Of a stretch of 64,000 nucleotides of DNA, positions 24,630-56,037 are shown one piece after another; the stretch's first letter is position 1; every line of letters starts with the position of its first letter. The notes beneath the pieces were generated by a model that had not been told where the DNA came from, ran no database searches, and saw nothing but the letters and a program-made list of their open reading frames with translations. This DNA comes from Verrucomicrobiales bacterium. GTDB taxonomy: Bacteria; Verrucomicrobiota; Verrucomicrobiia; Limisphaerales; JAYPEY01. Made by a program: the position numbers and the translations under genes. Location of the stretch: contig JAYPFK010000034.1 in NCBI GenBank assembly GCA_038126235.1, positions 17,906 through 81,905 of the forward strand, given 5' to 3'.

Positions 24630-27218
<2,589 letters not shown>

Positions 27219-27273: not shown

Positions 27274-29985
27274 ATGGCTGACGAGAACGAAGAAAACCAG
27301 GATGCCGGGCAGGAGTCGGCCCCGGAGAACAGTCAGGTGCAGCAGCCGCAACAGCTGCCGGTGACGAACACGCCGCTGTTTGCCGCGAATGAGAACGTCG
27401 CCAAGATCAATGTCGCCGACGAGATCAAGAACTCGTTCCTGGACTATTCGATGTCCGTCATCGTGTCGCGCGCTTTGCCGGATGTCCGTGACGGTCTGAA
27501 GCCGTCCCAGCGGCGGCTGCTCTATGCCATGAATCAGTTGGGCGTCCAACCCAACAAAAAGCACCTGAAGTGCGCCAAGATCGTCGGTGAGACGATGGGC
27601 AACTACCACCCGCACGGCGACCAGGCGATCTATCCCACGCTGGTTCACATGGCCCAGCCTTGGGCCATGCGCGACACGCTGGTTGACGGCCAGGGCAACT
27701 TCGGTTCCGTCGAGAACGATCCTCCCGCCGCCATGCGTTACACCGAGGCCCGGTTGACGCACCTCGGCTCGGTCATGATGGAGGACATGGACAAGGACAC
27801 GGTCGATTTCATGCCGACCTACGACGAGGCCAACACCGAGCCTGTCGTCCTCCCGTCCGCGTTCCCGCAACTTCTCGCCAACGGCGGGACCGGCATCGCG
27901 GTCGGCATGGCCACCAACATGGCCCCGCACAATCTCGGCGAGGTCATCGACGGCATCTGCGCGGTGATCGACCGGCCGGAGATCTCGATCGACGAGATCA
28001 ACGCGGATTACATCAAGGGGCCGGATTTTCCGACCGGCTGCATCATCTGCGGCACGGCGGGCATCAAGAGTTACTTCCATACCGGGCGGGGCAGCGTGAA
28101 GGTCAGGGGGCGCGTGGGCGTTGAGCAGCTCAAGGGCAACAAGGAGCAGATCGTCATCACCGAGATCCCGTTCAACGTGAATCGGGCCAACCTCGTCTCC
28201 CGCATTGCGGAGCTGGTCAACGACAAGACCCCGGGCTTCACGGATATTTCCGCCGTTCGGGATGAGTCGGACGAGAACACCCGTGTGGTTGTGGAGTTGA
28301 AGCGCGATGGCATCCCCAAGGTGGTCATCAACAATCTCTACAAATCCACGGCGCTCGGATCGACCTTTTCGGTCAACGCGCTGGCGATCGATCACGGCCG
28401 GCCGAAGACCCTGAATCTCAAGGAGCTGATCAACTGCTACATTGAGCATCGTCGCGAGGTTGTGCTGCGTCGCACGCGCTACCTGCTCAAGAAGGCGGAG
28501 GATCGCGCCGAGGTGCTGGAAGGTTACCTGATCGCGCTGGCCAACCTGGACGAGTTCATCCACATCATCCGCAGTTCCAGCAACCGCGAGGAGGCCAAGG
28601 TGAGATTGCTGGCCTTCGAATGGAGCAAGGAGCAGGTGCAGAACTGGGGCATCTTCCTGCGCAAGGAGGCGAACATCGATGAGACCGGCCAGTACGCGCT
28701 GACCGAACGCCAGGTCAACGCGATCCTTGAACTGAGGCTCTACCAGTTGACCGGGCTGGAAATCGACAAGGTCGAGGCCGAGTACAAGGAACTTCTCGAG
28801 ACCATCAAGGACCTGCTGGACATCCTCGCCCGCGAGGAACGCGTGCTGCAGATCATCAAGGACGAACTCAAGGTCATCCGCGACAAGCACGCCACGCCGC
28901 GGCGGTCGGACATTGTGCCGGACGAAGGGGAGATGGCGATCGAGGACCTCATCGCCAACGAACCCGTCATCATCACGCTCACCCACAATGGTCTGGTCAA
29001 ACGCACGAACATCAGCTCCTACCGCGCGCAGCGTCGCGGCGGCAAGGGCGTGATCGGCATGGAGACCCGCCAGAAGAGCGCCGTCGAGGGAACGGATTCC
29101 GATTTCATCGAGCATCTGTTCACGGCCAGCACGCACGACTATCTCATGTTCTTCACGAACACCGGGCGCGTCTACGTCGAACGGGTGCACGAGATTCCGG
29201 ACCTGGGGCGGGCGTCGAAGGGACGAAGCATCGCCAATGTCCTGGAAATGCAGTCCGGTGAGAAGATCGCCGCCATGAAGCGGGTCATTGGCAAGTACGA
29301 TGAGGAGAAGAATGACGTCACCTTCAAGCAGCCGGGCCACATCTTCTTCTCCACGCAGAACGGCACTGTCAAGAAGACCGAGCTCAGCGATTTCTCCAAT
29401 GTCCGCAAGGGCGGCATCATCGCCATCAAGATCGTGGAGGGCGACGACCTCATCGACGTCAAGCTCACCTCCGGCCACAACGAGGTGGTCCTGATCACGC
29501 GCAAGGGCCTGAGCATCCGCTTCAACGAGGAGAACGTCCGTTCGATGGGGCGCGCCACCACCGGCGTGCGCGGCATCAACCTGACCTCGGGCGACGAGGT
29601 CGTGGCCATGGCGATCGTCGAGGAGGATCACACCCTGCTCGTGGCGGGCGAGAACGGCATCGGCAAGCGCACGCCCTTCGACGACTACCGCGTTCAGAGC
29701 CGTGGCGGCAAGGGCATCATCACCATGAAGACCACCGGCAAGACCGGCGGCGTGGTGGGCGCGCTCAGTGTGCGCGACACCGACGAGATGATGCTGATCA
29801 CCTTCAAGGGCCAGATGGTCCGCACCCGCGTCCACGACGTCCGCGAATGCGGGCGGAACACCCAGGGCGTGAAGCTCATCGAACTTTCTTCCGGCGACAA
29901 GCTCCAGGCCATCGCCCCCGTCATCGACGAGGATCGGCCGGCAGAGGCGGGAGACGAGGCAAACCTGGAATCCGGCGAGGACTGA
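27274..29985 (+). CDS. gyrA: DNA gyrase subunit A
   Basis: Active-site Tyr region '[10 protein letters not shown]', the QRDR 'HPHGDQAIY', and C-terminal beta-pinwheel repeats are present. Confidence 0.95.
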
Positions 29986-30053: not shown

Positions 30054-30863
30054 GTGCCGAATCCTGTCATATCCATTGCGAATCAAAAGGGCGGGGTGGG
30101 AAAGACCACCACGACCATCAGTCTGGCCGCCTGCCTGGGCGCGCAGGGGAAACGCGTGCTCGTGGTCGATATCGATCCGCAGGCCAATGCGACTTCCGGG
30201 CTGGGGCTGGAAAAGCAGCCCGGCGGCAGCGTGCTCGGGCCGCTCATGGAGGAGGCTTCCGTTGCCGATCGCATCAAGTACACGGTCTTTGAGAACATCT
30301 ACGTGCTGCCGAGCGAGATCGATCTGTGCGGCGCGGAGATTGAACTTTGCAGCCGTGAGAATCCGGCCGGGCAGTTGACCCGTGTGCTGGAGCCGCTGCG
30401 CGAGAGTCCGGATATCGATCTGATCCTGATCGACTGCCCGCCGTCGCTGGGCATCCTGACCTTGAACGCCTTTTCCGCGTCGGACTGGCTGATCGTTCCG
30501 CTGCAATGTGAGTACTATGCGCTGGAGGGCATCTCGACCCTGATGAACACCCTGGAGCAGTTGAAGAGCAACGGCGTGACGTCGAGGCTGGAGCTGCTGG
30601 GCATCGTGATGACCATGTTCGACGGCCGCACGAACCTGTCCAACATGGTGGTTGACGAGGTGCAGAGCCACTTCGGCGACAAGGTGTTCGAGACCGTGAT
30701 TCCGCGCACCACGAAGCTGGCCGAAGCCCCCAGTCATGGGAAACCGATCCGCGAATATGACGGCTACAACGCCGGCGCCGCCGCCTACGACGTGCTGGCC
30801 GAGGAGGTGGCGCGACGGTTGGAGGAGGCCAGGGAGCCCCGGAACGAAGCTCCGGGGCAATAG
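30054..30863 (+). CDS. parA: ParA/Soj-family ATPase, orphan with no adjacent parB
   Basis: Deviant Walker A 'KGGVGKTTT'. 269 aa. No ParB/Spo0J ORF follows. Confidence 0.9.
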   Translation: MPNPVISIANQKGGVGKTTTTISLAACLGAQGKRVLVVDIDPQANATSGLGLEKQPGGSVLGPLMEEASVADRIKYTVFENIYVLPSEIDLCGAEIELCSRENPAGQLTRVLEPLRESPDIDLILIDCPPSLGILTLNAFSASDWLIVPLQCEYYALEGISTLMNTLEQLKSNGVTSRLELLGIVMTMFDGRTNLSNMVVDEVQSHFGDKVFETVIPRTTKLAEAPSHGKPIREYDGYNAGAAAYDVLAEEVARRLEEAREPRNEAPGQ

Positions 30864-30935: not shown

Positions 30936-33230
30936 TTACTGCTGCGCGGTCTCGCGAACGAGGAATACCGGGATGGCTCCGTATTTCTTGGCGAGTTGCT
31001 TGGTGCCGACGTAGTCGCAGGTGAATTCCTTTACGCCGTCGGCGGTCGCGATGGCGGCGAAGGCCTCGCTGGAGTAGATCTGACCTTCTTCCGCGACCGG
31101 TTCGATGCGCGCCGTGCGGTTGACGTGGGCGCCATTGAAGGTGCGTTTCTTGAGCACCGGATCGTAGCAGGGGAACACGGGGCCGCAGTGCAGGGCGATG
31201 CGGATGCTGAGATCGGGCAGGTCCCATTTGCTCCAGTCCGAACCCCGCACGAGGGCGCGCAGCCTCAGGGCGAAGATGCCGGCGTCGGTGACGGTGTCGA
31301 AGACGCACATGACGGCGTCGCCCCAGGTGTTGTGGTGGACGGGCGGATGTTCAAGGTTGAACATGATGTCCGCGACCTGCCCGAGGAAGTGTTTCACGAA
31401 GCCGGGGATCTGGACCTCGGATAGCTTGGTGAAACCGACAACATCCGCGAACACCATCGCCTTGATCTCCTGCTTGGCCGAACTCTCCAGCTCGGAAACC
31501 TCGGCGCCGGCGGGAGGGCGGGCTGGCGAGGTCGTGACTTCCGGGGAATCTTCCGAGGGCGGCGCCAGGTCTTCTTCCGTGCCGTTCCCCACGTGGATGA
31601 CGTGGACCTCGCTGCGCTGCTTGTTGCGCCAATAGTCGACACAGCTTTGGGTGCCGCCCGCGCCGTCACCCCGTTTGCCATCCCAGACAAACAAGGGGGT
31701 GACGTCCATGCCGAGGAACTGGCTCTTGAGCAGGGCCAGGCCGCTGATCGCCTGATTGCAGAAATCGAAGGCCGCGGAGTCCTGCGCGTCGCCCAGTTCG
31801 CTGAGCATGGTCACGGTGGCGGCCTGCTTGAGGACGTTGTCGAACCGCTCCCCCCAGTCCGTTCCGGGCACGATGTCAACGCTGGCTTTCTTGAAGTCGT
31901 CCACCAGGAAGGGAAGGACGATGTTGACCTCGCCTCCGTGGGCGAGGAGCGATTCAGCGAAGATCTGGTCCGCGCCGCAGGCCAGCGAGGAATACCCGAC
32001 GTGAACGTTGGACTTTTTGACGAAGGCATCAATCTGGGCCCGCACTTCGGCCTCCTTGGCGACGGGAAAACGCGGGGTCTCGCGGTCGGGACGGTCGAAC
32101 ATGTGTCCCGAGAAGACCGCGATCTTGGGCAGGTTGAAGCATTGGTCGAGGCGATGGATGTCCTCGCCGAGATACTCGAGGATCATGCGGGCCTGGGCGC
32201 GGGTGCGGCTGAGGACGACTGAACCGACGCCGCCATCCTCGCTGCCTTTCCGGTAATAGCTTTCGGCGCCTTCGAAGTCGCCCATGATCAGGAGGGCTTC
32301 CGCGAGCGTGGCTTCCAGCCAGTAGCGTTCGCCGGATTCGGGGCTGATGTAATCCAGTGTTGCGGAGCAGATTTCGCTCACCTCCTTGGCCAGCTTCTGG
32401 GCGTTTTCCTTGTCGCCGTAGAGCAGGCCGGTGGTGGCCGCATTGATGCCGGAATAATACCCGCCGTTGCGTTCGTAGGCGTCTGCGTAAAGTTCGTAAC
32501 TGCGGCGGAGGTGCTCCTTGCCTTCCTCGGGATTCATCGACAGCTGCCAGAAGTCCTTGTAGGTGCGGGCCAGGATTCCGAGGGTTTCCTCGTCCTTGTG
32601 CCCGGACTGGCTGAGCTGTTCCAGGATGGCATTGGCGCGGCGGGTGGCGCCGGTGCGGGCGAGGGCGAGGGCTTGCAACTGCAGCAGCCGCAGGTCGTCG
32701 GTGAACTTGTGGATGCCTTCGTCGGCAATGTCGAAGGCGACAAAACCTTCCCCCTGTTTCAGGGCGACATCCGTGGCGCGACGGTAGATTTCCACGTCCT
32801 GCGACCAGATGATCGGAATGCGCTCGGTCCAGAGCTGTCTCAGGCCGGCCGTGGTGATCTTGGGGCTCTTGATCTCGCGCAGCACCGCCTGTGCCTGGTC
32901 GTCCCTTTCCTTCTGATCCAGGAACAGGGCGTCGCTGACTGTGGGGTCCTTGCGGTAGCCCAGGGAGATCAGCGTCTTGATCGTCTCAGTGGCGGAGGTG
33001 CGGTCCATGTCCCGCTCGTGTTCAGGCAGGTCCTTGAAGGGGACGAGGCAGGGATGAAGCTTGTTGGCGTCGTCGCGCGAGGGACCGTATCTCCAGCCTT
33101 GCCGGACGCGCTCGCGCGCCCAGACTTCATGGTTGTTCTCTGCGAACACTTCAGCCAGGGCAAGCACGTCCTGGGACAACTGGATGCGCGAAGTGTCGAG
33201 AGGTCGGGGTTCGTAGGTTCCTTCGCTCAT
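30936..33230 (-). CDS. Multidomain signalling protein: RyR domain, TPR-like helical repeats, SLOG (DprA/LOG-like) domain, and class III nucleotide cyclase domain
   Basis: Residues 22-95 match the RyR domain ('HEVWARERVRQGWRYGPSRDDANKLHPCLVPFKDLPEHERDMDRTSATETIKTLISLGY'). Residues 368-540 match the SLOG/DprA pattern ('IAVFSGH..VGYSSLACGADQIFAESLLAHGGEVNIVLPF..GDGAGGT'). Residues 590-760 match a class III cyclase ('FADVVGFT','TWGDAVM','IRIALHCGPV','GAHVNRTARIE'). Confidence 0.8.
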   Translation of the reverse strand: MSEGTYEPRPLDTSRIQLSQDVLALAEVFAENNHEVWARERVRQGWRYGPSRDDANKLHPCLVPFKDLPEHERDMDRTSATETIKTLISLGYRKDPTVSDALFLDQKERDDQAQAVLREIKSPKITTAGLRQLWTERIPIIWSQDVEIYRRATDVALKQGEGFVAFDIADEGIHKFTDDLRLLQLQALALARTGATRRANAILEQLSQSGHKDEETLGILARTYKDFWQLSMNPEEGKEHLRRSYELYADAYERNGGYYSGINAATTGLLYGDKENAQKLAKEVSEICSATLDYISPESGERYWLEATLAEALLIMGDFEGAESYYRKGSEDGGVGSVVLSRTRAQARMILEYLGEDIHRLDQCFNLPKIAVFSGHMFDRPDRETPRFPVAKEAEVRAQIDAFVKKSNVHVGYSSLACGADQIFAESLLAHGGEVNIVLPFLVDDFKKASVDIVPGTDWGERFDNVLKQAATVTMLSELGDAQDSAAFDFCNQAISGLALLKSQFLGMDVTPLFVWDGKRGDGAGGTQSCVDYWRNKQRSEVHVIHVGNGTEEDLAPPSEDSPEVTTSPARPPAGAEVSELESSAKQEIKAMVFADVVGFTKLSEVQIPGFVKHFLGQVADIMFNLEHPPVHHNTWGDAVMCVFDTVTDAGIFALRLRALVRGSDWSKWDLPDLSIRIALHCGPVFPCYDPVLKKRTFNGAHVNRTARIEPVAEEGQIYSSEAFAAIATADGVKEFTCDYVGTKQLAKKYGAIPVFLVRETAQQ

Positions 33231-33451
33231 GATTGAAACTGAGATGTTCCTGGCGTCTTGATGACCGATTTGGCGGCCGTGGTGAGCGCCCCCGGGGTTC
33301 CGGAACGTGGCGGCTCGCCGCTGTCGAGGGGCGTTCTTAGGCCATATGCGGTTGGATTTGAAGCCAATTCTTGGAGAAACGGCGTTCCCGCGGGCGGTTT
33401 TCGGGACTGCGGATTGACCCGCCGGACGAATCGAGGCAAATACAGGCGCCC

Positions 33452-34126
33452 ATGAGTTCTACGAGCATTCTCGAAGCCTCCCGTCTCACCAAGACCTACC
33501 GCGGTGGAGCCGGCGAGTTGACGGTCCTGGACAGGGTGGATCTGTCGGTGGGGGCGGGCGAAAGCTGCGCGATAGTCGGGCCGTCCGGGAGCGGCAAGAC
33601 GACCCTGTTGGGTCTTTGTGCGGGGTTGGACACCCCGACCTCCGGGACGGTGAGGTTGAACGGGGCTGACCTGGCCGGGTTGGACGAGGACGGCCGGGCG
33701 CGCCTGCGGAATGAATGCGTGGGTTTCGTGTTCCAGAGTTTCCAGTTGATTCCGACCCTGACCGCCTTGGAGAACGTCATGGCCCCGTTGGAATTGCGCG
33801 GGGAACGGGGCGCGCGCGACCGGGCTGTTGAATTGCTGGAGCGGGTGGGGCTGGCCGGCCGGCCGGAGCACCATCCCAGCCAGCTTTCCGGAGGCGAGCA
33901 ACAACGCGTGGCCTTGGCGCGCGCCTTCATCAACCGTCCCCGGATACTCTTTGCGGATGAACCGACCGGGAATCTCGATGGCGAGACCAGCCACAAGATC
34001 GTGGACATTCTCTTCGGGTTGAACGCCGCTCAGGAAACGGCGCTTGTCCTGGTCACCCACGACAACGAACTCGCCGCGAAAGCGGGCAAGGTGGTGCGCC
34101 TGCGGGATGGCCGGGTGGTCGATTGA
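33452..34126 (+). CDS. ABC transporter ATP-binding protein (LolD/MacB-type)
   Basis: Walker A 'GPSGSGKTT', signature '[14 protein letters not shown]', Walker B '[11 protein letters not shown]'. Confidence 0.9.
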
Positions 34127-34136
34127 GCGGCCGAAC

Positions 34137-36824
34137 ATGAAGGATGAAGCCTCAGCCCTGAACTCTTCGCCCGGATCGGCGACCGGAGCAGGCGGGGCGT
34201 CGATCCCTCTTCTGGGATCCACCATCCTCGGGGCGCTGTTCCAACCCTGGGTCTGGCGGATGGCGTGGCGGGACAGCCGGAGCAGTCGACGCCGGATGCT
34301 GTTCTTTTCGACGTCGATCATGTTCGGGATTGCGGCGTTGGTGGCCATCGGTTCGTTCGGTCACAATCTGAGGCGCAACGTCGATCTCCAGACGCGGACC
34401 TTGATCGGCGCGGACGTGGCGGTGACCGCGCGGCAGCCCTTCACGGAGGAGGAATGGCGGGGACTGGAGGCGGCCGGCGGGGAGCTGGCCCGGGAGACCA
34501 GCCTTTCCTCGATGGTTTTCTTCCCGAAGGGGGAACATGTGCGGTTGATTCAGATCCGCGCGGTCGAGGGCGGCTTTCCCTTTTATGGGGAGCTGAAGAC
34601 GCGCCCGGCGGCCGCCGCGGCCGAGTTCCGGGCGGGCCGCGGCGTCCTTGTGGAGGCAAGCGTGCTGGAACAGTTTGGCATCGAGCCCGGCGACCGGATG
34701 CGCCTGGGACAATGGGAGACAACCGTGGCGGGGAGCCTGCTGGACGCGCCGGGCGCCAACATCGCTTTCGAGATGTTGGCGCCGACCGTGTTCATCCCGC
34801 TGGCGGACCTTGAGAAGACGAAGCTCCTGGGCGCGCGCAGCCTGTCCCGGCATCACGCCTACTTCAAACTGGGCGAGGGCATGACCGTCGGGGATCTGGT
34901 CAGGTCGGCGAAGGACGTCGTGCAGGAGCGCGCGCGGTATGACACGGTCGAGGAGCGGAAACAGCAGTTGGGCAGGACGCTCGGCCACCTGAACCGCTTT
35001 CTGAATCTCACCGGCTTTGTCGCGTTGTTGTTGGGGGCGGTTGGGACGGCGAGCGCGATCCGGGTGCACGTGAAGCAGAAGCTGGCCACGATCGCGGTGT
35101 TGCGGTGTCTCGGATGCGGAACAGGACAGACCTTCGCCATCTACCTGATCCAGACCGTGGCCTTGGGAATGACCGGAACCTTGCTGGGGACGCTTCTGGG
35201 CTTGCTCGTGCAACGGCTTCTGCCGGCGGCGGTGTCCGGGGTCGTGCCGTTTGAGATCGAGGTTTCGGTGGCCTGGCCGGCGGTGTTTGAGGCGATGGCG
35301 ATCGGCTTCGGCGTCTCTTTTCTCTTTGCCCTGGCCCCGCTGTTGAGCGTGCGTCGGGCGTCCCCCCTGGCGGCGATCCGGGGGCTGGCGGAAGACGGTG
35401 CCGGAGGCAGGTTCGATCCGCTGCGGGCGCTGGTTCAGGTCGGCATTGCGGCTTCGGTGGCGGCCTTCGCGATCGCGCAGACCGAGCGTTGGGAGTTCGG
35501 GGCCGCTTTCGCGGCGGCGATCGGAATCTCGCTGGCGGTCCTGGCCGGCCTCGCGAAGGCGATCACCGTCATCGTGCGACGAACGATTCCAGCGACGCTG
35601 CCTTACGTCTGGCGGCAGGGTTTGGCCAATCTTTACCGGCCGAACAATCGCACCGTCCTGTTCATGGTCTCCATCGGTCTGGGCGCCTTCCTGGTCCTGT
35701 CGCTCTACCTCACCCAGCATGTTCTGGTGACGAAGCTCTTTCCGATGGAAAAGGCCAACACCCCGAATGCGATCCTGTTCGAAGTCTATCCCGATCAGAA
35801 GGCGGGCGTTGTCGAGGTGATGGAGTCGATGAAACTGCCGTTGTTGCAGGACGTGTCGATCGTGAACATGAAGCTGGCGGCGATCAAGGGGACGCCGGTC
35901 GAGGAGGTTCCGCGTTGGCGGGGGAGACCGCGAAGCAAGGGCGGACGCGGTCCCGGTCCGGACGGGGACGGTCGCCGGTTGGGCGTGCCCCGTTGGGTTC
36001 TGGAACGGCAATACCGTTCGACCTACCGCGACCACCTGGAGGATTCCGAGGAGCTTGTGGCCGGCGAACTGCACGGCCCGTTCACCGGGGGAATTGACGA
36101 TGTGATCCCGGTTTCCGTCGAGGAGAAAATCGCGGAGGACCTGGGCGTGACCTTGGGGGACGAATTGGCCTGGGATGTCCAGGGCATGCCGATCAGGACC
36201 AGGGTGAGCAGCCTGAGAAAGGTGGACTGGCGACGCGTGCAGCCGAATTTCTTCGTGGTGTTTCCGACCGGATCGCTGGACGAGGCGCCGGCGCAGCACA
36301 TCCTGACGACGCATGTGAAGGACAGCCCGGAATCGGCCGCCCTGCAACGCGAGGTGGTCAAACGTTTTCCAAACGTCTCCGCGATCGACCTCACCTTCAT
36401 CGTCCAGACCATTGAAGGGATCGTGGACCGGGTGACGTATGTGATCCGGTTCATGGCCATGTTCACGGTGGCGACGGGCGTGTTCGTGCTCGTTGGAACG
36501 GTGATGACGGGGCGGTATCAACGCATTCGGGAGAGCATCCTCCTGCGGACGCTGGGCGCCTCGCGGAAACAGGTGCAGCGCATCCTGCTTTCGGAATACC
36601 TGTTCCTCGGCGTCTTTGCGGGCGCGACGGGCGCGGTCCTGGCTGTCGGTGGGAGTTGGGCCTTGTCGAGGTTTGTCTTCAAGGTCGATTACGCCTTGGC
36701 ATGGGGACCGTTGTTCGTGGCGCTGGCGGTCGTGGCGGTGATGACCGTGGCGGTCGGCCTGCTCGGCAACCGCGGGGTGGCGACGCACCCTCCGCTGGAA
36801 ATCCTGAGGAATGACGGGGCCTGA
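34137..36824 (+). CDS. FtsX-family ABC transporter permease with duplicated FtsX domains (MacB/LolE-like, about 895 aa)
   Basis: Two FtsX TM bundles, each preceded by a large extracytoplasmic domain. The start is at the ATG 11 bp after the ATPase stop. Confidence 0.85.
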   Translation: MKDEASALNSSPGSATGAGGASIPLLGSTILGALFQPWVWRMAWRDSRSSRRRMLFFSTSIMFGIAALVAIGSFGHNLRRNVDLQTRTLIGADVAVTARQPFTEEEWRGLEAAGGELARETSLSSMVFFPKGEHVRLIQIRAVEGGFPFYGELKTRPAAAAAEFRAGRGVLVEASVLEQFGIEPGDRMRLGQWETTVAGSLLDAPGANIAFEMLAPTVFIPLADLEKTKLLGARSLSRHHAYFKLGEGMTVGDLVRSAKDVVQERARYDTVEERKQQLGRTLGHLNRFLNLTGFVALLLGAVGTASAIRVHVKQKLATIAVLRCLGCGTGQTFAIYLIQTVALGMTGTLLGTLLGLLVQRLLPAAVSGVVPFEIEVSVAWPAVFEAMAIGFGVSFLFALAPLLSVRRASPLAAIRGLAEDGAGGRFDPLRALVQVGIAASVAAFAIAQTERWEFGAAFAAAIGISLAVLAGLAKAITVIVRRTIPATLPYVWRQGLANLYRPNNRTVLFMVSIGLGAFLVLSLYLTQHVLVTKLFPMEKANTPNAILFEVYPDQKAGVVEVMESMKLPLLQDVSIVNMKLAAIKGTPVEEVPRWRGRPRSKGGRGPGPDGDGRRLGVPRWVLERQYRSTYRDHLEDSEELVAGELHGPFTGGIDDVIPVSVEEKIAEDLGVTLGDELAWDVQGMPIRTRVSSLRKVDWRRVQPNFFVVFPTGSLDEAPAQHILTTHVKDSPESAALQREVVKRFPNVSAIDLTFIVQTIEGIVDRVTYVIRFMAMFTVATGVFVLVGTVMTGRYQRIRESILLRTLGASRKQVQRILLSEYLFLGVFAGATGAVLAVGGSWALSRFVFKVDYALAWGPLFVALAVVAVMTVAVGLLGNRGVATHPPLEILRNDGA

Positions 36825-37051
36825 ATCAATGCCTTGGGCTGCTCCCCGTCGGCGTTTGTCATTTGGGGCGTAGGGTATGTGAAAGACAACGCCGAGGCGG
36901 TGATGGGGCGAGCAGTCCCATGTGAGCTTCGCTGGGGCATGCTCGGGGCGGCTCATTGAGGACAGTTCGCCCTACCGTTTTGTATGGTTGTAATTCCTCG
37001 AACTCCCTGTTCGGAGTCGCCTTTCCGTGGATTGTTGCCCACGATATTCCC

Positions 37052-40000
37052 ATGAATGACATGTCGCCAGACGAGAGCTTTCCCCGTTCCGCCGAGTTGC
37101 GGAGCCGGGACTGGATTCTCTTCGGCGTCTTCTTCCTGTCGGGCGCCCTGGCCCTGGTCTATGAGATCTGCTGGATCCGGAAGGCTTCGTCGGTGTTCGG
37201 TTCGGAGAGCTTTGCGTTGAGTTGTGTGCTCGCCGTGTTCTTCGGAGGGTTGGCCCTGGGGAGTTTCCTGATAGGAAGACGGACCCCCGGATGTCGTTCC
37301 CCTCTGAAATGGTATGGAGCCCTGGAGATTGCGGTGGGGGTGTTTGCGATCTTGAGCCCGGCCCTGTTCGCGCTGGCCGATCGTGTCTACGGACCGGCCT
37401 ACGCGGCGTTGGAGAATCGCTTTGCGGCGTTGACCTTTGTTCGCTGCCTGCTGCTGACGGCGGTGATGTTGCCGCCGACGGTCGCCATGGGCGGGACGTT
37501 TCCCGTGATGTGCCGCTGGTTCGTCACGGCGCGTGAGCACGTATCAGGCAGGGTGGGCGGTTTGTTCGCCTTGAACACCTTTGGAGCCTGCCTGGGCGCG
37601 TTGGCCTGCGGTTTCTATCTGATTCCCAAGGTTGGAATCGACGCCTCCATCTATTTCGGTGGCGCGATCAGCGTGGCTCTGGGCGTGGTCGTGATGAGAC
37701 TTTCGAACGACGGAGGGGAGGTTGTGACGGAAGAGGAGGAAGGGGGGAAGGCGAAGGAAACTCCGGCCGCTTCCTCCGGAAGCGTCGGGGCGATCGAAGC
37801 CTTGTTTTTTGCCTCGGGGTTCGTCGCCTTGGGCAATGAGATCCTCTGGACGCGTTTCCTGTCCCTGATCCTGTTGCGCAGCGTCCATACCTACACCCTC
37901 GTCCTCGCGGTCGTCCTGTTCGGCCTGGTCGTCGGGGCGGCGGCGACCTCCCGCATGTTTGACGGAAGCCAGCGCCGGGGAGCCTGGTTTGGCGCGCTGC
38001 AGATGGCGAACGGTGTCTTTGTCCTGATGGTCCTGCTGGCTCCGGCGGAATTCTGGACGCGGTGGCTGGATGCGGATGGGGTGGCCAGGCAGGCGTCATT
38101 GGCCGTGTTGATCCTCCTCGGACCCGCGTGCCTTTCCGGGGCGGCGTTTCCGTTGGCGATGCGGATGGCGGTGGAGGATCCGGCGCGTGCGGGCGCCGGC
38201 GTCGGACGCATGACCGCCTTGAACACCGTGGGGGGGATACTGGGATCGATCGTTTTTGGATTCGTGTTGTTGCCCGGCCTGGGGATGCACGCGACAGCCC
38301 TGCTTTCCACCGGCTTGAGCGTGGCGGCCGGGGTCACGGCGGTCCTGGCGGTGGAGCGCAACATGCCGAAAAGCGGCAGGCTGGCGTTGGTCTTCGCCGG
38401 AGTGGCGCTTTGGGGCGGGTTGGCCGGCGGGATGAAGACCCGGTTGCCGGCGGATTATCTGGGGCGCGGAGGCGCGTTGGTGGATTACCGGGAGGGGGTG
38501 AACGCGTTTGTCTCCGTCGTGGATTCGGAGGGCGGTGTGCGACGGTTGATGATCGACCGGCTATGGCAGGGTTTCAACCGCCGGGGGCACCAGGTGATGG
38601 CTGCGCACATCCCGATGGCGCTGCATCCCGATCCCCGTGAAATCGCGGTGGTCGGCATGGGAGCGGGGCAGACCCCGAGCCGGTTCCTGATGTACGATAT
38701 CGACCGCCTGGACTGCGTCGAAATCGAGGGTGAGACGCTGAACATGATCCGCGAGCATTTTGCTGCGGAGTGGATGGACGATCCCAGGACTCATTTCATC
38801 GTGGATGACGGCCGGAACTACCTGGCGCACACGCGGCGTTCCTACGACCTGATCTCGATCGAGGTCGGCCAGACCTACCGTCCGGGGGTGGCGTCCTTCT
38901 ATACGCGGGAGTTTTATGCGGCGGCGGGAAAGCGGTTGAAGCATGGCGGCCTGCTGTGCCAGTTCCTGCCGATCGCGTTCTTTTCCGTCGAGGAGCTTGA
39001 GGTGTTGACCGCGACGTTTCTGGAGGAGTTTCCCGACAGCGTGCTCTGGTACAACACCGCGGAGTTGCTGCTGATCGGCCGGCGCGATGAGCGACCGATG
39101 ATCTACACCGCGCGGTCCCAGGCGTTGGGGACGAATGTCGCGGTCATGCGCGACCTGCAGTTCTCCTACTGGGGCGGGGTGAATTACTTTCTGGTTCATC
39201 CGCACGTGTTCCTCGGCGGATTTCTGCTGGGCCCGGAGGGGCTTCACAAGCTCGCTGAAGGCGCCGCGATCTACCGGGACAACCGGCCATGGCTCGAGTA
39301 TTCGAGCGTGCGGGCCCGTCGCCCGGAGACGGATCTTGTGCAGCGGCTCCGGCCGCTGCTGGATCCGTTGGCTCCATTGCTGGAATTCAAACCAGGGTCG
39401 CACGAGATCGCGGCGAGCGAGCGCGTCCGTGATCTGAATCTGCGGGACATCGTGGCCTCCTCGATGCAGGACGATATTCACGCGGCCTTCAGCGCGGGAG
39501 ACCGTGAGCGGGGACTGCGACTCGCGCGCGAGGCGGCGAACTGGAATCCGGAGAACCTGTTTTTGAAGATGTTGCTGGCGGATGAACTGAGCGAGGAGAA
39601 ACGGTATGAGGAGGCGGTGGAGCTTTATCGTTCGGTGATTGAGGCCAAACCGGGTTTCGCGGTGGCGCACAGCAATCTGGGGTCCGCGTTGGCGGCGCTT
39701 GGCCGCCTGAACGAGGCTGTCGCCTGTTTTCGCGAGGCCCTGAAGCGGGATCCTTCGCTGGAGTCCACGCGCGCGAGCCTCAAGCAGGCCATCGAGACGC
39801 GAGGGCGGACCGGACCCAGCCTGGCCGAACTCAAGGAGACCGCCCGGAGAAATCCGCACAACACCTTCGCCATGCTGGATCTGGCGCAGGGGTTGTTCGA
39901 CGCCGGGGATTACCCGGGGTGCATTGCGGAATACCGGAAGCTCCTGCGCATCGAACCGGAATCGCCAACCGCGTTGAACGATCTGGCCTGGGCTTTGGCG

Positions 40001-40261
40001 ATTGCCCCGGAAGGACAGGGACGCAACCCGTCCGAGGCGGTCGCGTTGGCCGAACGCGCGGTGCAGTTGACCGGCCGGAGCAGCGCCATCGCGCTCGGCA
40101 CCCTGGCGGCCGCGCACGCGGCGAAAGGCGACTTCGCCAAGGCCCGGGATCTGTCGCGGGAAGCGATTGCCATGTCGCGCCGGGAGAAGGAACCGGAGGT
40201 GGAGCGCCTGTTGGCGGAACGGTTGAAGCTGTTCGAACAGGGGCGGGACCTGCGGAGGTGA
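37052..40261 (+). CDS. Fusion protein: polytopic membrane domain, spermidine/spermine synthase-like domain, and C-terminal TPR repeats
   Basis: Multiple TM helices are present. The spermidine-synthase motif 'IAVVGMGAGQT..YDLISIEV' is present. TPR repeats lie in the last roughly 300 aa. Confidence 0.75.
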   Translation: MNDMSPDESFPRSAELRSRDWILFGVFFLSGALALVYEICWIRKASSVFGSESFALSCVLAVFFGGLALGSFLIGRRTPGCRSPLKWYGALEIAVGVFAILSPALFALADRVYGPAYAALENRFAALTFVRCLLLTAVMLPPTVAMGGTFPVMCRWFVTAREHVSGRVGGLFALNTFGACLGALACGFYLIPKVGIDASIYFGGAISVALGVVVMRLSNDGGEVVTEEEEGGKAKETPAASSGSVGAIEALFFASGFVALGNEILWTRFLSLILLRSVHTYTLVLAVVLFGLVVGAAATSRMFDGSQRRGAWFGALQMANGVFVLMVLLAPAEFWTRWLDADGVARQASLAVLILLGPACLSGAAFPLAMRMAVEDPARAGAGVGRMTALNTVGGILGSIVFGFVLLPGLGMHATALLSTGLSVAAGVTAVLAVERNMPKSGRLALVFAGVALWGGLAGGMKTRLPADYLGRGGALVDYREGVNAFVSVVDSEGGVRRLMIDRLWQGFNRRGHQVMAAHIPMALHPDPREIAVVGMGAGQTPSRFLMYDIDRLDCVEIEGETLNMIREHFAAEWMDDPRTHFIVDDGRNYLAHTRRSYDLISIEVGQTYRPGVASFYTREFYAAAGKRLKHGGLLCQFLPIAFFSVEELEVLTATFLEEFPDSVLWYNTAELLLIGRRDERPMIYTARSQALGTNVAVMRDLQFSYWGGVNYFLVHPHVFLGGFLLGPEGLHKLAEGAAIYRDNRPWLEYSSVRARRPETDLVQRLRPLLDPLAPLLEFKPGSHEIAASERVRDLNLRDIVASSMQDDIHAAFSAGDRERGLRLAREAANWNPENLFLKMLLADELSEEKRYEEAVELYRSVIEAKPGFAVAHSNLGSALAALGRLNEAVACFREALKRDPSLESTRASLKQAIETRGRTGPSLAELKETARRNPHNTFAMLDLAQGLFDAGDYPGCIAEYRKLLRIEPESPTALNDLAWALAIAPEGQGRNPSEAVALAERAVQLTGRSSAIALGTLAAAHAAKGDFAKARDLSREAIAMSRREKEPEVERLLAERLKLFEQGRDLRR

Positions 40262-53836: not shown

Positions 53837-53973
53837 CGAGTCAATTTCCCGAATTTTGTTGACGGGAATGGGCCGAAATCAATTTGATCGGCGATGCCAT
53901 TGTCCGAACCGCATGCCATTCAAAAGCCGAATTTCCGGCGCGCAACCCTTTTCCTGACCCTCGCTCTGAATTG

Positions 53974-56037
53974 ATGATGGGAACGGCGCAGAAAAAACGG
54001 CCCGGGGGCAGGCGGAAGAAGAAAAATGCCGCCGATCCGCTGGACGCGGCGATCGCGAGGGCTCTCGAGTGGTCAGATGAGGAGCAGCACGAGCAAGGTT
54101 TTTGGTGCGGCAATCTGGAGTCCAATTCCTGCATGGAGGCCCAGTGGGTCCTGGCCATGCACATCATGGGGCTCAAGGACGATCCCAAGTATGACGGCGT
54201 CATCCGTTGCATCCTAAACGAACAGCGGGAGGACGGATCCTGGGCCATCTACTACGGAGCGAATCTCGGCGACATCAACACGACCGTGGAATGCTACGCG
54301 GCCCTGCGTTCGGCGGACATCGATCCCGACAGCGAGCCGATGGTCAAGGCGCGGGAATGGATCTTCGCCCACGGAGGTCTGAAGGAACTGCGTGTCTTCT
54401 CCAAGTACTGGCTGGCCTTGATCGGGGAATGGCCATGGGAAAAGACCCCGACGTTGATTCCCGAGTTGATCTGGTTGCCGCCGTGGCTGCCGTTCAACAT
54501 CTACGATTTCTCCTCCTGGGCCCGCGCGACCCTGGTCCCATTGTGCCTGCTTTCGGCGCGGCGGCCCGTGACGCCCCTGGCCCCGGAGCACAGGCTGGAC
54601 GAGCTTTTCCCCGAGGGACGCGGCAACTTTGATTTCTCCATCCCGGCCAAGGCCGGCTGGGTTTCCTGGGAAACGGTGTTTCTGGGCTTGGACATATTTT
54701 TCGGGCAGGTCTACCACCGGTTGCCGTGGAAGCCGGGGCGTTCGCTGGCCATGGCGCAGTGCCGCGACTGGATCGTGGCGCACCAGGATGCCGACGGCGC
54801 CTGGGGTGGCATTCAGCCGCCGTGGATCTACTCGGTCATGGCCCTGTATTTCGAGGGCTGGCCCGTTTCGCACCCGGTCTTGCAGAAGTCCCTGCGGGCC
54901 TGGGACACGCATTGGTCCTACGAGAAGAATGGCGGGACCTACATCCAGGCCTGCATGTCGCCGGTCTGGGACACCGTCCTGACGCTGTTGGCGCAGGAGG
55001 ATTGCGACGAGACCATCGAGGGCCGCGAATCAATGAAGAAAGCGCTGGAGTGGACCCTGGGCAAGCAGGTCATGACCGGCGGCGACTGGCAGGTGCGCGT
55101 CAAGAACGTCGAGCCCGGAGGCTGGGCCTTTGAGCATGAGAACGCCGCCTATCCGGATGTGGACGACACCTCGGTGGCGGTGATCGTGTTGACCCGAATC
55201 CTGGAGTATTTGAAGGAGAACGACGGGGATGCCGAGACGATCGCCCGCATGGAAGAGGCGATCGACAAGGCCGTGAGATGGATGATCGGTTTCCAATGCC
55301 GCAACGGGGGGTGGGCGGCCTTCGACAAGGACAACACCTCGGAATGGGTGACCAAGATTCCGTTCTGCGATTTTGGCGAGGTGCTCGATCCGCCTTCGGT
55401 GGATGTCACCGCCCACGTTTTGGAGGCCTTGGGATTGAACGGCTACACGGCGGCTGATCCGGTCGTGGCGCGGGCTTTGGAGTATGTGCTGGAGGAACAG
55501 GAGGATGACGGAAGTTGGTTCGGTCGCTGGGGCGTGAATCACATTTATGGCACGGCTGCCGTGTTGCCGGGCCTGGAGGCCATCGGTGAGGACATGAATC
55601 AGGCTCATGTCCGCAAGGCTGCGGACTGGGTTGCCTCCAAGCAGAACAAGGACGGAGGCTGGGGCGAAACCTGCGCCTCCTACATGGACGACAATCTCCG
55701 CGGCGTCGGCGATTCCACAGCCTCGCAGACCGGATGGGCCTTGATGGCCCTGATCGCCACCGGCTCAGACGATTACAACGATTCGATCCGACGCGGTGTC
55801 GAGTGGCTTCAGGAAACGCAGTTGGAGAACGGCTCTTGGGACGAGCCCTACTACACGGGAACCGGTTTTCCGGGATACGGTGTGGGCCATCGGATCGACC
55901 TGCAGGGCGATCCCAATACACACCAAGGCCGGGAGCTCGCGCGCGGGTTCATGATCAACTACAACATGTACCGCCACTACTTTCCGCTCATGGCCCTTGG
56001 CCGCGCCCGACGGCATTTGGCCGGAGATGGGGAATGA
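53974..56037 (+). CDS. shc: Squalene-hopene cyclase
   Basis: The DxDD motif 'DVDDTSVAVIV', multiple QW repeats, and a length of about 690 aa. Confidence 0.9.
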   Translation: MMGTAQKKRPGGRRKKKNAADPLDAAIARALEWSDEEQHEQGFWCGNLESNSCMEAQWVLAMHIMGLKDDPKYDGVIRCILNEQREDGSWAIYYGANLGDINTTVECYAALRSADIDPDSEPMVKAREWIFAHGGLKELRVFSKYWLALIGEWPWEKTPTLIPELIWLPPWLPFNIYDFSSWARATLVPLCLLSARRPVTPLAPEHRLDELFPEGRGNFDFSIPAKAGWVSWETVFLGLDIFFGQVYHRLPWKPGRSLAMAQCRDWIVAHQDADGAWGGIQPPWIYSVMALYFEGWPVSHPVLQKSLRAWDTHWSYEKNGGTYIQACMSPVWDTVLTLLAQEDCDETIEGRESMKKALEWTLGKQVMTGGDWQVRVKNVEPGGWAFEHENAAYPDVDDTSVAVIVLTRILEYLKENDGDAETIARMEEAIDKAVRWMIGFQCRNGGWAAFDKDNTSEWVTKIPFCDFGEVLDPPSVDVTAHVLEALGLNGYTAADPVVARALEYVLEEQEDDGSWFGRWGVNHIYGTAAVLPGLEAIGEDMNQAHVRKAADWVASKQNKDGGWGETCASYMDDNLRGVGDSTASQTGWALMALIATGSDDYNDSIRRGVEWLQETQLENGSWDEPYYTGTGFPGYGVGHRIDLQGDPNTHQGRELARGFMINYNMYRHYFPLMALGRARRHLAGDGE

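Follow-up and report, generated by a model that had tools for sequence, protein, structure and literature searches.

The 64,000-nt stretch of Verrucomicrobiales DNA analysed here (hereafter the window) encodes, at positions 30936-33230, a 764-aa protein in which a ryanodine-receptor (RyR) domain, a TPR-S domain, a SLOG domain and a class III nucleotidyl cyclase follow one another, and this four-domain arrangement is real and conserved. The protein family to which it belongs has a strong, cross-phylum genomic link to TIR-domain proteins that have kept their catalytic glutamate and to nSTAND1 NTPases. We regard it as an even call whether the protein serves as a receptor for an ADP-ribose (ADPR)-type signal, derived from TIR activity or NAD, and answers with the synthesis of a cyclic nucleoside monophosphate (cNMP); in this reading we infer the identity of the ligand, the direction of signalling, the mode of activation and the product. 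The general idea of an initial annotation of this DNA, that of a sensor-coupled second-messenger synthase, is supported at the level of sequence.

The gene is one unbroken open reading frame (ORF) of 764 codons plus stop, running from ATG to stop on the minus strand, and its product begins with MSEGTYEPRPLDTS and ends with FLVRETAQQ; the initial annotation had recognized this single ORF correctly without giving its strand. The four-part architecture that it proposed was borne out by Pfam, phmmer, a family-profile alignment, fold comparison and a full-length structure model (pLDDT 86, pTM 0.77), in which the boundaries lie at residues 20-89 (RyR), 96-353 (helix array), 369-546 (SLOG), 553-583 (disordered linker) and 588-760 (cyclase). 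For the RyR domain, previously placed at residues 22-95, the Pfam match covers residues 6-93, and phmmer against the PDB returned matches only to the repeats of RyR1-3 and to the Bacteroides RyR-domain protein 3NRT. The TPR-like helical array was identified more specifically as TPR-S, its core scoring 78-80 bits with PF20308 (cut-off 27.6), and a weaker Pfam match to MAP3K_TRAF_bd/DUF4071 spans residues 177-313 (E 3e-7). TPR-S was reportedly defined in the same 2015 study as SLOG. The cyclase domain matches Guanylate_cyc (PF00211) over residues 591-745, with 35.1 bits in the whole protein (E 1.3e-8) and 39.3 bits for the domain alone (E 6.7e-10), against a cut-off of 21.9.

A search of a 90%-clustered database gave 397 matches to full-length relatives of this architecture, to which annotators have given the names 'TRAFs-binding domain-containing protein', 'DUF4071 domain-containing protein' or 'class 3 adenylate cyclase'. 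The family is present in at least 589 species-level genomes, which belong to Verrucomicrobiota, Acidobacteriota, filamentous cyanobacteria, Desulfobacterales, Gemmatimonadales and Bipolaricaulia, and the closest relatives (89-90% identity) come from Verrucomicrobiales/Verrucomicrobiota metagenome-assembled genomes (MAGs). A profile of the SLOG domain retrieved 5081 cluster representatives at E<=1e-3 among 1.84 billion, 945 of them at E<=1e-30. The constant core is TPR-S-SLOG(-cyclase) and the N-terminal slot varies: it holds RyR in the window protein, GAF in P0209, a cNMP-binding domain in P0218 and a receiver (REC) domain in P0058, and is empty in a 660-aa marine Verrucomicrobial clade. In two representatives (P0235 and P0253) a STAND NTPase is fused directly to TPR-S-SLOG. 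The initial annotation did not recognize the combination as a described system. This stands insofar as we found no paper on the RyR-TPR-S-SLOG-cyclase combination or its TIR linkage, with the reservation that the 2015 comparative-genomics paper defining SLOG may already list TPR-S-SLOG-cyclase; it needs qualifying in that each module is of a known family and that proteins of this kind are numerous.

The proposed link to cyclic ADP-ribose (cADPR) comes first from the RyR domain. According to a May 2026 preprint, phage proteins carrying the PF02026 RyR domain bind 2′cADPR and 3′cADPR (PMC13232231). The founding member RyDEP (DyoEdafos gp78), a homodimer, cleaves both isomers to ADPR, with H75/D117 as catalytic dyad, W78 stacking on the adenine and H100 contacting the phosphates, whereas most other homologues tested are non-catalytic nanomolar sponges to which cADPR isomers bind uncleaved (PMC13232231). 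BLASTP aligned the RyR domain of the window protein with gp78 at 48% identity over a 46-residue core (E 4e-12), and H34, W37, H59 and D76 align exactly with H75, W78, H100 and D117 of RyDEP. That is, the predicted RyDEP-type ligand site is intact. Among 47 aligned RyR-bearing relatives, H34 is kept in all, W37 in 43, H59 in 41 and D76 in 34. The clade that includes the window protein, which lacks TIR neighbours (see below), keeps all ligand and catalytic residues except that position 76, the equivalent of RyDEP D117, is Asn or Tyr in two members.

Two further observations concern RyR domains. One acidobacterial subclade (P0107, P0113, P0117 and P0120; locus L004 and relatives) has lost the ligand residues (W to R, H to S or A, D to Y), and its neighbourhood differs as well, with a receiver-domain gene upstream and an O-methyltransferase gene followed by a TIR gene downstream. 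In the RyDEP-encoding phage DyoEdafos, gene 89 (L087:10387-10803) is annotated as 'DprA-like DNA processing chain A' and may encode a viral SLOG domain, which is of interest beside the pairing of RyR and SLOG in the window protein.

For the SLOG domain, sequence profiles gave no match to a curated SLOG family, neither in Pfam (residues 350-570) nor among PDB profiles, both at E<=10. The Rossmannoid fold was found at residues 366-548, and in fold comparison YpsA (2NX2) scored 18.0, followed by ShosA/DprA (about 12.4), LOG (10.6), the Moco carrier protein (10.2), TRPM2 (9.8) and the ThsA SLOG domain with 3′cADPR (7UXS; 8.0). Residues G375-H376-M377-x-D379, R383, R387-F388-P389, S415, A417, G419-x-D421, G521 and G525-G526-T527 are invariant across the family, and C418, D522 and G523 are kept in at least 90% of its sequences. 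SLOG was defined by Burroughs et al. 2015 (per PMC6459960), and the GxD/E signature that marks the predicted nucleotide pocket of the YpsA clade (PMC6459960) takes the form G419-A-D421 here, with G and D invariant in 54 of 54 sequences. We therefore assign the SLOG domain to the YpsA clade, which also includes the 3′cADPR sensor of ThsA (PMC9503650), and its predicted pocket is extremely conserved.

At the output end, alignment of the family profile to solved cyclases bore out the initial annotation in that both metal-binding Asp residues (D596 and D638) and the transition-state Asn/Arg (N704 and R708) are intact, and that the first base-position residue is the Asn of 'NTWGDA' (Asn634). The second had been read as the Ala of 'NGAHVN' (A701), which proved to be a misalignment by four residues: on alignment to sGC-beta (3ET6) and Rv1264 the correct residue is Thr697. 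The base pair is still non-canonical after this correction, being N/T where adenylyl cyclases have K/D or K/T and guanylyl cyclases E/C, so that neither of the pairs that canonically specify a purine, Lys/Asp(Thr) and Glu/Cys(Ser, Thr, Gly...), is present. Among 54 relatives, D596, N634 and D638 are each kept in 53 and R708 in all 54; at position 697, 39 relatives have Thr and 13 have Asn, and at position 704, 36 have Asn and the other 18 Ser. The latter two positions depend on the clade, Thr/Asn prevailing in Verrucomicrobiota and Ser at 704 together with, in most cases, Asn at 697 being the acidobacterial form, a clade-wise shift that hints at a coordinated change of the active site. In a Foldseek search of the full model against the PDB, the best 50 matches were all ordinary class III adenylyl/guanylyl cyclases (CyaC, RhGC, Cya2, CyaB, Rv1900c, sGC and GC-A). 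Judged by these residues the cyclase looks competent, and its base preference is not one that can be read from the sequence.

It is hardly credible, in our view, that the protein is a pseudo-cyclase or inactive relic that has lost the base-binding Lys/Asp pair and makes no cNMP. The N634/T697 pair is non-canonical, and one relative is clearly degenerate (P0058, 946 aa with an extra receiver domain; D596E, N634Q, D638S and T697A) and is likely a pseudo-cyclase in an otherwise conserved family. However, mycobacterial cyclases with non-canonical pairs, namely Rv1900c (Asn/His) and Rv0386 (Gln/Asn), are active purine cyclases, and all four catalytic residues are intact in the window protein and mostly kept in the family. 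Moreover, guanylyl cyclases naturally differ among themselves at the second base position (PMC4215837).

Another explanation, to which we give little credence, is that of a signal-processing or signal-terminating enzyme: the RyR domain (through the H34/D76 dyad), the SLOG domain or both would hydrolyse TIR-made nucleotides, and the cyclase would be independent or a mere dimerization module. This would fit the retention of the catalytic His/Asp dyad of RyDEP, and also the extreme conservation of the SLOG pocket, LOG-type SLOG domains being N-glycosidases. On the other hand, most tested RyDEP homologues bind cADPR isomers without cleavage (PMC13232231), and the catalytic Glu of the LOG motif 'PGGxGTxxE' is absent from the window protein, which reads GGTQSC, and the position of this Glu varies across the family. 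Furthermore, the catalytic residues of the cyclase are under strong conservation, more than a mere scaffold would need.

The link to TIR signalling emerged from clustering of the flanking ORFs of 87 loci, with TIR counts taken from 57 unique loci having at least 3 kb on both flanks. The dominant conserved neighbour of the relatives is a TIR-domain protein, encoded within 6 kb in 38 of the 57 loci and within 2.5 kb in 34. This linkage spans Acidobacteriota, Verrucomicrobiota, Gemmatimonadales and Bipolaricaulia, often together with an nSTAND1 NTPase. When the loci are binned by how similar their protein is to that of the window, a TIR gene occurs within 6 kb in 29/33 at below 46% identity, in 2/6 at 46-55%, in 7/8 at 55-61% and in 0/10 at 61% or above, the last group being the window's own clade. 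Five TIR architectures occur: (i) TIR-transmembrane (TM)-C-terminal domain proteins of ~635 aa in Pyrinomonadaceae, directly upstream or downstream on the same strand; (ii) TIR-TM-coiled-coil-WD40 proteins of ~1400 aa in Verrucomicrobiota, encoded divergently; (iii) TIR+DUF4062 proteins of ~500 aa, after which comes an nSTAND1 NTPase bearing TPR or WD40 repeats; (iv) a TIR-nSTAND1-WD40 protein whose gene abuts the cyclase gene (L030); and (v) TIR-Sel1 proteins of ~470 aa. In all seven TIR neighbours sampled, a Glu is kept that aligns with what we take to be the catalytic Glu of SARM1, in a reference sequence presumed to be correct. PADLOC scans gave no known-system identity for the TIR/STAND neighbours (no ThsB, PycTIR or other catalogued component), and nothing similar to the motifs of these TIR proteins appears in the accessible part of the TIR sequence tables of a recent Thoeris survey (see below). 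Motifs of the linked TIR subfamily include 'FISYSH..W..WLH' and 'FRDR[DE]ELP'. The two most informative lines of evidence, this TIR/STAND neighbourhood of the relatives, of which none was found in the window or its clade, and the recent discovery that RyR domains bind cADPR, are absent from the initial annotation.

Several features of these neighbourhoods deserve mention in their own right. A group of TIR neighbours in Verrucomicrobiota and Pyrinomonadaceae (L018:5386-9588; L020-L023, L025 and L028; L002:5966-7849) has an N-terminal TIR domain and one predicted TM helix, followed by either a long coiled coil and a WD40 propeller or an unannotated domain of ~400 aa, a layout reminiscent of Toll-like receptors. 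The TIR domains are 60-68% identical between the Verrucomicrobiota and Pyrinomonadaceae neighbours, a higher value than the 43-60% at which the cyclase proteins of these two clades match the window protein. In seven loci of Pyrinomonadaceae and other Acidobacteriota (L036, L038, L040, L041, L047, L053 and L061) the cyclase gene has a conserved set of three genes downstream on the opposite strand, which encode a 154-aa protein, a 363-aa protein with similarity to sigma-70 region 2 and, nearby, a subtilase S8. An 'ABC ATPase' neighbour cluster of 20 loci was rejected as a functional link, as it mixed different ABC families and orientations.

The association with TIR genes could also be read in the reverse direction, as in Pycsar and Pucsar: the cyclase would act upstream, its cNMP would activate the TIR neighbour as an NAD-depleting effector, and RyR and SLOG would only regulate or clear TIR products. 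We consider this distinctly unlikely. Both of these systems are reported to pair class III-type cyclases with TIR effectors; the PADLOC model of PycC gives a marginal match to the window protein (E 0.0045, 14.1 bits); and the catalytic Glu kept in the TIR neighbours is also compatible with a role as NADase effectors. However, no cNMP-binding, GAF or other recognizable cyclic-nucleotide receptor domain was found in the examined TIR neighbours, which instead carry sensor-type parts (WD40, TPR, Sel1, STAND partners and TM-ectodomains), and none of them matches PycTIR in PADLOC. Moreover, the cyclase protein itself has three domains of ADPR-ligand types, and its fold neighbours are ordinary adenylyl/guanylyl cyclases, PycC structures being absent from the best 50. 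Membership in Pycsar was rejected on these grounds, since an effector with a cyclic-nucleotide-binding domain adjoins the cyclase gene neither in the window nor among the examined TIR neighbours of the relatives, and the Pycsar-like resemblance suggested in the initial annotation is not upheld.

If the protein is instead a receptor for an ADPR-type signal, the question is how occupancy of the input half would reach the cyclase. The Pro/Ser/Glu-rich linker between SLOG and cyclase has pLDDT values below 50 in the model, and no coiled-coil transducer element was predicted in it. Because this linker is disordered rather than helical, ligand-driven dimerization or oligomerization is suggested as the mode of activation. 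Class III cyclases must dimerize, and ThsA is activated by oligomerization on its SLOG domain; we counted both points in favour of this mode. The protein would thus be a cytoplasmic, probably homodimeric sensor nucleotide cyclase, whose input half (RyR/R12, a TPR-S scaffold and a YpsA-clade SLOG) would bind an NAD+-derived ADPR-type nucleotide, that is, a cADPR isomer or related TIR product. Occupancy would switch on the C-terminal cyclase, probably through association across the flexible linker, and the product would be a 3′,5′-cNMP, with a base that Asn634/Thr697 does not predict. In most relatives the ligand would come from the adjoining, catalytically competent TIR protein with its own sensor parts (TM-receptor-like, WD40, Sel1 or an nSTAND1 partner), and the family would relay a TIR signal into a cyclic-nucleotide signal. 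For the solitary window copy, the source of the ligand would be encoded elsewhere or be endogenous NAD metabolism.

The locus itself is summarized in Table 1. A minus-strand ORF upstream of the cyclase gene was considered as an operon partner and rejected: it has no Pfam match and is overlaid by the strongly supported plus-strand ABC ATPase gene, and it is therefore taken as spurious and the cyclase gene as solitary. Likewise, tblastn with seven TIR queries returned only noise in the window, the best match (E 0.036, at 54484-54615) lying inside a squalene-hopene cyclase gene, the source of this weak and spurious hit. No flanking gene at E<1e-20 is common to the window and to the loci of relatives with 83-90% identity (L029, L007 and L008), so that the local context is uninformative on function.

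Table 1. Features of the cyclase gene, its product and selected neighbours in the window (G+C ~62%)
Feature	Position	Strand	Remarks
gyrB	24651-27218	+	neighbour
gyrA	27274-29985	+	neighbour
ParA-like ATPase gene	30054-30863	+	convergent with cyclase gene
Cyclase gene, whole ORF	30936-33230	-	ATG start; solitary; convergent with ParA-like gene, divergent from ABC-transporter operon
Class III nucleotidyl cyclase catalytic domain	30951-31469	-	residues 588-760
Transition-state R708 ('HVNRTAR')	31107-31109	-	family profile aligned to solved cyclases
Transition-state N704 ('HVNRTAR')	31119-31121	-	family profile aligned to solved cyclases
Base-position residue T697 ('RTFNG')	31140-31142	-	aligns with Asp of Rv1264 and Cys of sGC-beta 3ET6
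Metal Asp D638 ('NTWGDA')	31317-31319	-	family profile aligned to solved cyclases
Base-position residue N634	31329-31331	-	aligns with Lys (adenylyl cyclase) or Glu (guanylyl cyclase)
Metal Asp D596 ('FADVVGFT')	31443-31445	-	family profile aligned to solved cyclases
Pro/Ser/Glu-rich linker, SLOG to cyclase	31482-31574	-	residues 553-583
SLOG Rossmannoid domain, YpsA-like clade	31587-32135	-	residues 366-548
All-helical TPR-like array	32172-32945	-	residues 96-353; 13 helices in full-length model
TPR-S core (PF20308) inside helical array	32433-32711	-	residues 174-266; Pfam E 7e-22
RyR/Repeat12-type domain (PF02026)	32952-33215	-	residues 6-93; Pfam E 4.5e-33
ORF, taken as spurious	33227-34348	-	373 aa
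ABC ATPase gene	33371-34126	+	divergent from cyclase gene
MacB/FtsX permease gene	34044-36824	+	divergent from cyclase gene
ORF	36956-40261	+	1101 aa; spermidine-synthase-like methyltransferase-fold domain (residues 546-669) and C-terminal TPR array
Squalene-hopene cyclase gene	53884-56037	+	717 aa

A number of points weigh against a receptor for TIR-derived signals. The neighbours of the cyclase gene are housekeeping genes (gyrB, gyrA, the ParA-like gene and the ABC transporter) and not those of a defence island; the window has no TIR or STAND gene in the ~30 kb to each side of the cyclase gene; and TIR genes are missing from all ten loci of the window's own clade. No downstream cNMP receptor was found linked to the cyclase gene. 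The TIR neighbours of the relatives might act as effectors instead of generating the signal, the SLOG domain might be an enzyme and not a sensor, and activity may vary in the family, given that Asn704 is Ser in 18 of the 54 relatives. Some of these points would suit a housekeeping metabolic sensor, that is, a regulated adenylyl/guanylyl cyclase reading the cell's own NAD+/ADPR pool, another metabolite pool or stress, with no role in TIR signalling or conflict, the TIR linkage elsewhere being a lineage-specific recruitment. The solitary position among housekeeping genes, the TIR-less clade and the lack of synteny with the window even at 90% identity all fit such a role. B. subtilis YpsA is tied to oxidative stress and cell division, not to defence (PMC6459960), and N-terminal domains that are exchanged for one another, here GAF, cNMP-binding and REC, are a typical trait of ordinary signalling cyclases. 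We nevertheless judge a housekeeping sensor to be unlikely. The TIR linkage extends over several phyla and five TIR architectures, from which we argue that it is ancestral or was repeatedly selected. In addition, the RyR ligand residues are intact in the TIR-less clade, apart from position 76 in two members, which leaves a cADPR-like ligand as the simplest assumption there.

Taking the receptor reading one step further, the family might form the second tier of a cascade, in which an ADPR-type signal made by a sensor-coupled TIR protein would be read by RyR/TPR-S/SLOG and answered with a cNMP, possibly one with an unusual base (Asn/Thr or Asn/Asn). The logic would be Thoeris-like, with a messenger synthase in the place of the 'effector'; the host RyR domain might also use its intact His/Asp dyad to break down the cADPR isomer that it receives, so that the response limits itself, and the whole would parallel, in bacteria, the long-debated link between cADPR and RyR in animals. 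We put this forward tentatively, as a possible but doubtful scheme. If the reading as a receptor is true, bacteria convert TIR/NAD-derived immune-type signals into classical cyclic-nucleotide signalling, and conflict or danger sensing would be tied to general cell physiology rather than to cell death. RyR/Repeat12 would then be a cADPR-type ligand module in cellular and not only phage proteins, which bears on the action of cADPR on animal ryanodine receptors. Furthermore, the Asn/Thr (Verrucomicrobiota) and Asn/Asn/Ser (Acidobacteriota) active sites would make a clean test case for substrate choice by class III cyclases.

Some observations on individual branches of the family may be added. The RyR-less marine Verrucomicrobial clade (L054, L056, L057, L065, L077, L080 and L082) is flanked by a gene for a large ankyrin-repeat protein of ~790 aa, and most of these loci also by genes for a Na+/H+ exchanger with a TrkA-C domain and a family-2 glycosyltransferase. 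The Verrucomicrobiota MAG CAYQCZ01 has two paralogues (L016 and L017), 62% and 60% identical to the window protein. On a contig labelled as a 'Chitinophaga pinensis' MAG (L010), the encoded protein is 62% identical to the window protein and the downstream ABC ATPase matches that of Verrucomicrobial loci; the label may be a binning or labelling error.

Compared with known proteins, the window protein shares with class III cyclases carrying N-terminal sensors (CyaC, Cya2, Rv1264, Rv1900c and CyaB) the catalytic fold (Foldseek target-normalized TM-score 0.65-0.83), both metal Asp residues, the transition-state Asn/Arg and the layout of an N-terminal regulatory and a C-terminal cyclase domain. It differs in its base pair (Asn/Thr versus Lys/Asp, Lys/Thr or Glu/Cys), in that RyR-TPR-S-SLOG is not among the characterized regulators of these enzymes, and in its linker, which is disordered where theirs is a helical transducer. 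YpsA (2NX2), for its part, is a stand-alone protein of 180 aa with 16% identity to the SLOG domain, and the GHMxD and RFP motifs of the window protein are family-specific. With RyDEP the window RyR domain has PF02026 and the four ligand/catalytic residues in common, but RyDEP is a small stand-alone viral anti-defence protein, whereas here RyR is the N-terminal module of a multi-domain host enzyme and presumably a sensor. The likeness to PycC of Pycsar and PucC of Pucsar consists in enzymes of the cyclase superfamily with TIR proteins genomically associated in some relatives. Differences from PycC are the lack of a partner with a cNMP receptor and the marginal HMM (hidden Markov model) similarity. 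PycC is also not known to have large sensor domains such as the window family carries. For Pucsar, a 2026 preprint describes a Pycsar-related cyclase that makes cGMP, which activates a TIR effector.

The closest comparison is with the Thoeris effectors ThsA (SIR2-SLOG, type I), the type III SLOG effector and ThsI (a CMP hydrolase with TPR, type VIII). Thoeris types V-XI were defined in a December 2025 preprint, a survey that discarded multi-gene systems containing PF00211 as presumed Pycsar. Pairs of TIR and cyclase genes therefore fell outside it, and since its filter would remove the present family, a configuration widespread in hundreds of species of several phyla may have gone unexamined. 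Shared with Thoeris are the YpsA-like SLOG sensor type and probably TPR-S, as which we tentatively read the TPR of ThsI. By domain homology the window protein has effector domains of types known to bind TIR-made ADPR signals (SLOG and RyR, with TPR-S presumed). Shared as well are the adjoining, catalytically competent TIR gene in most relatives and the expected logic leading from a TIR-made ADPR-type signal to an enzymatic output. Unlike in Thoeris, no TIR gene adjoins the effector gene in the window, the copy studied here lies outside a defence island, and the TIR partners of its relatives are large sensor proteins (TM-receptor-like, WD40, Sel1 or with nSTAND1) rather than a small ThsB. The window protein also has an extra RyR domain. 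Most characteristically, its output would be a second messenger made by a class III cyclase, in place of the toxic NADase, pore or nucleotide hydrolase of Thoeris, and we would place the finding with TIR/Thoeris-like nucleotide signalling, as a variant whose output comes from a cyclase.

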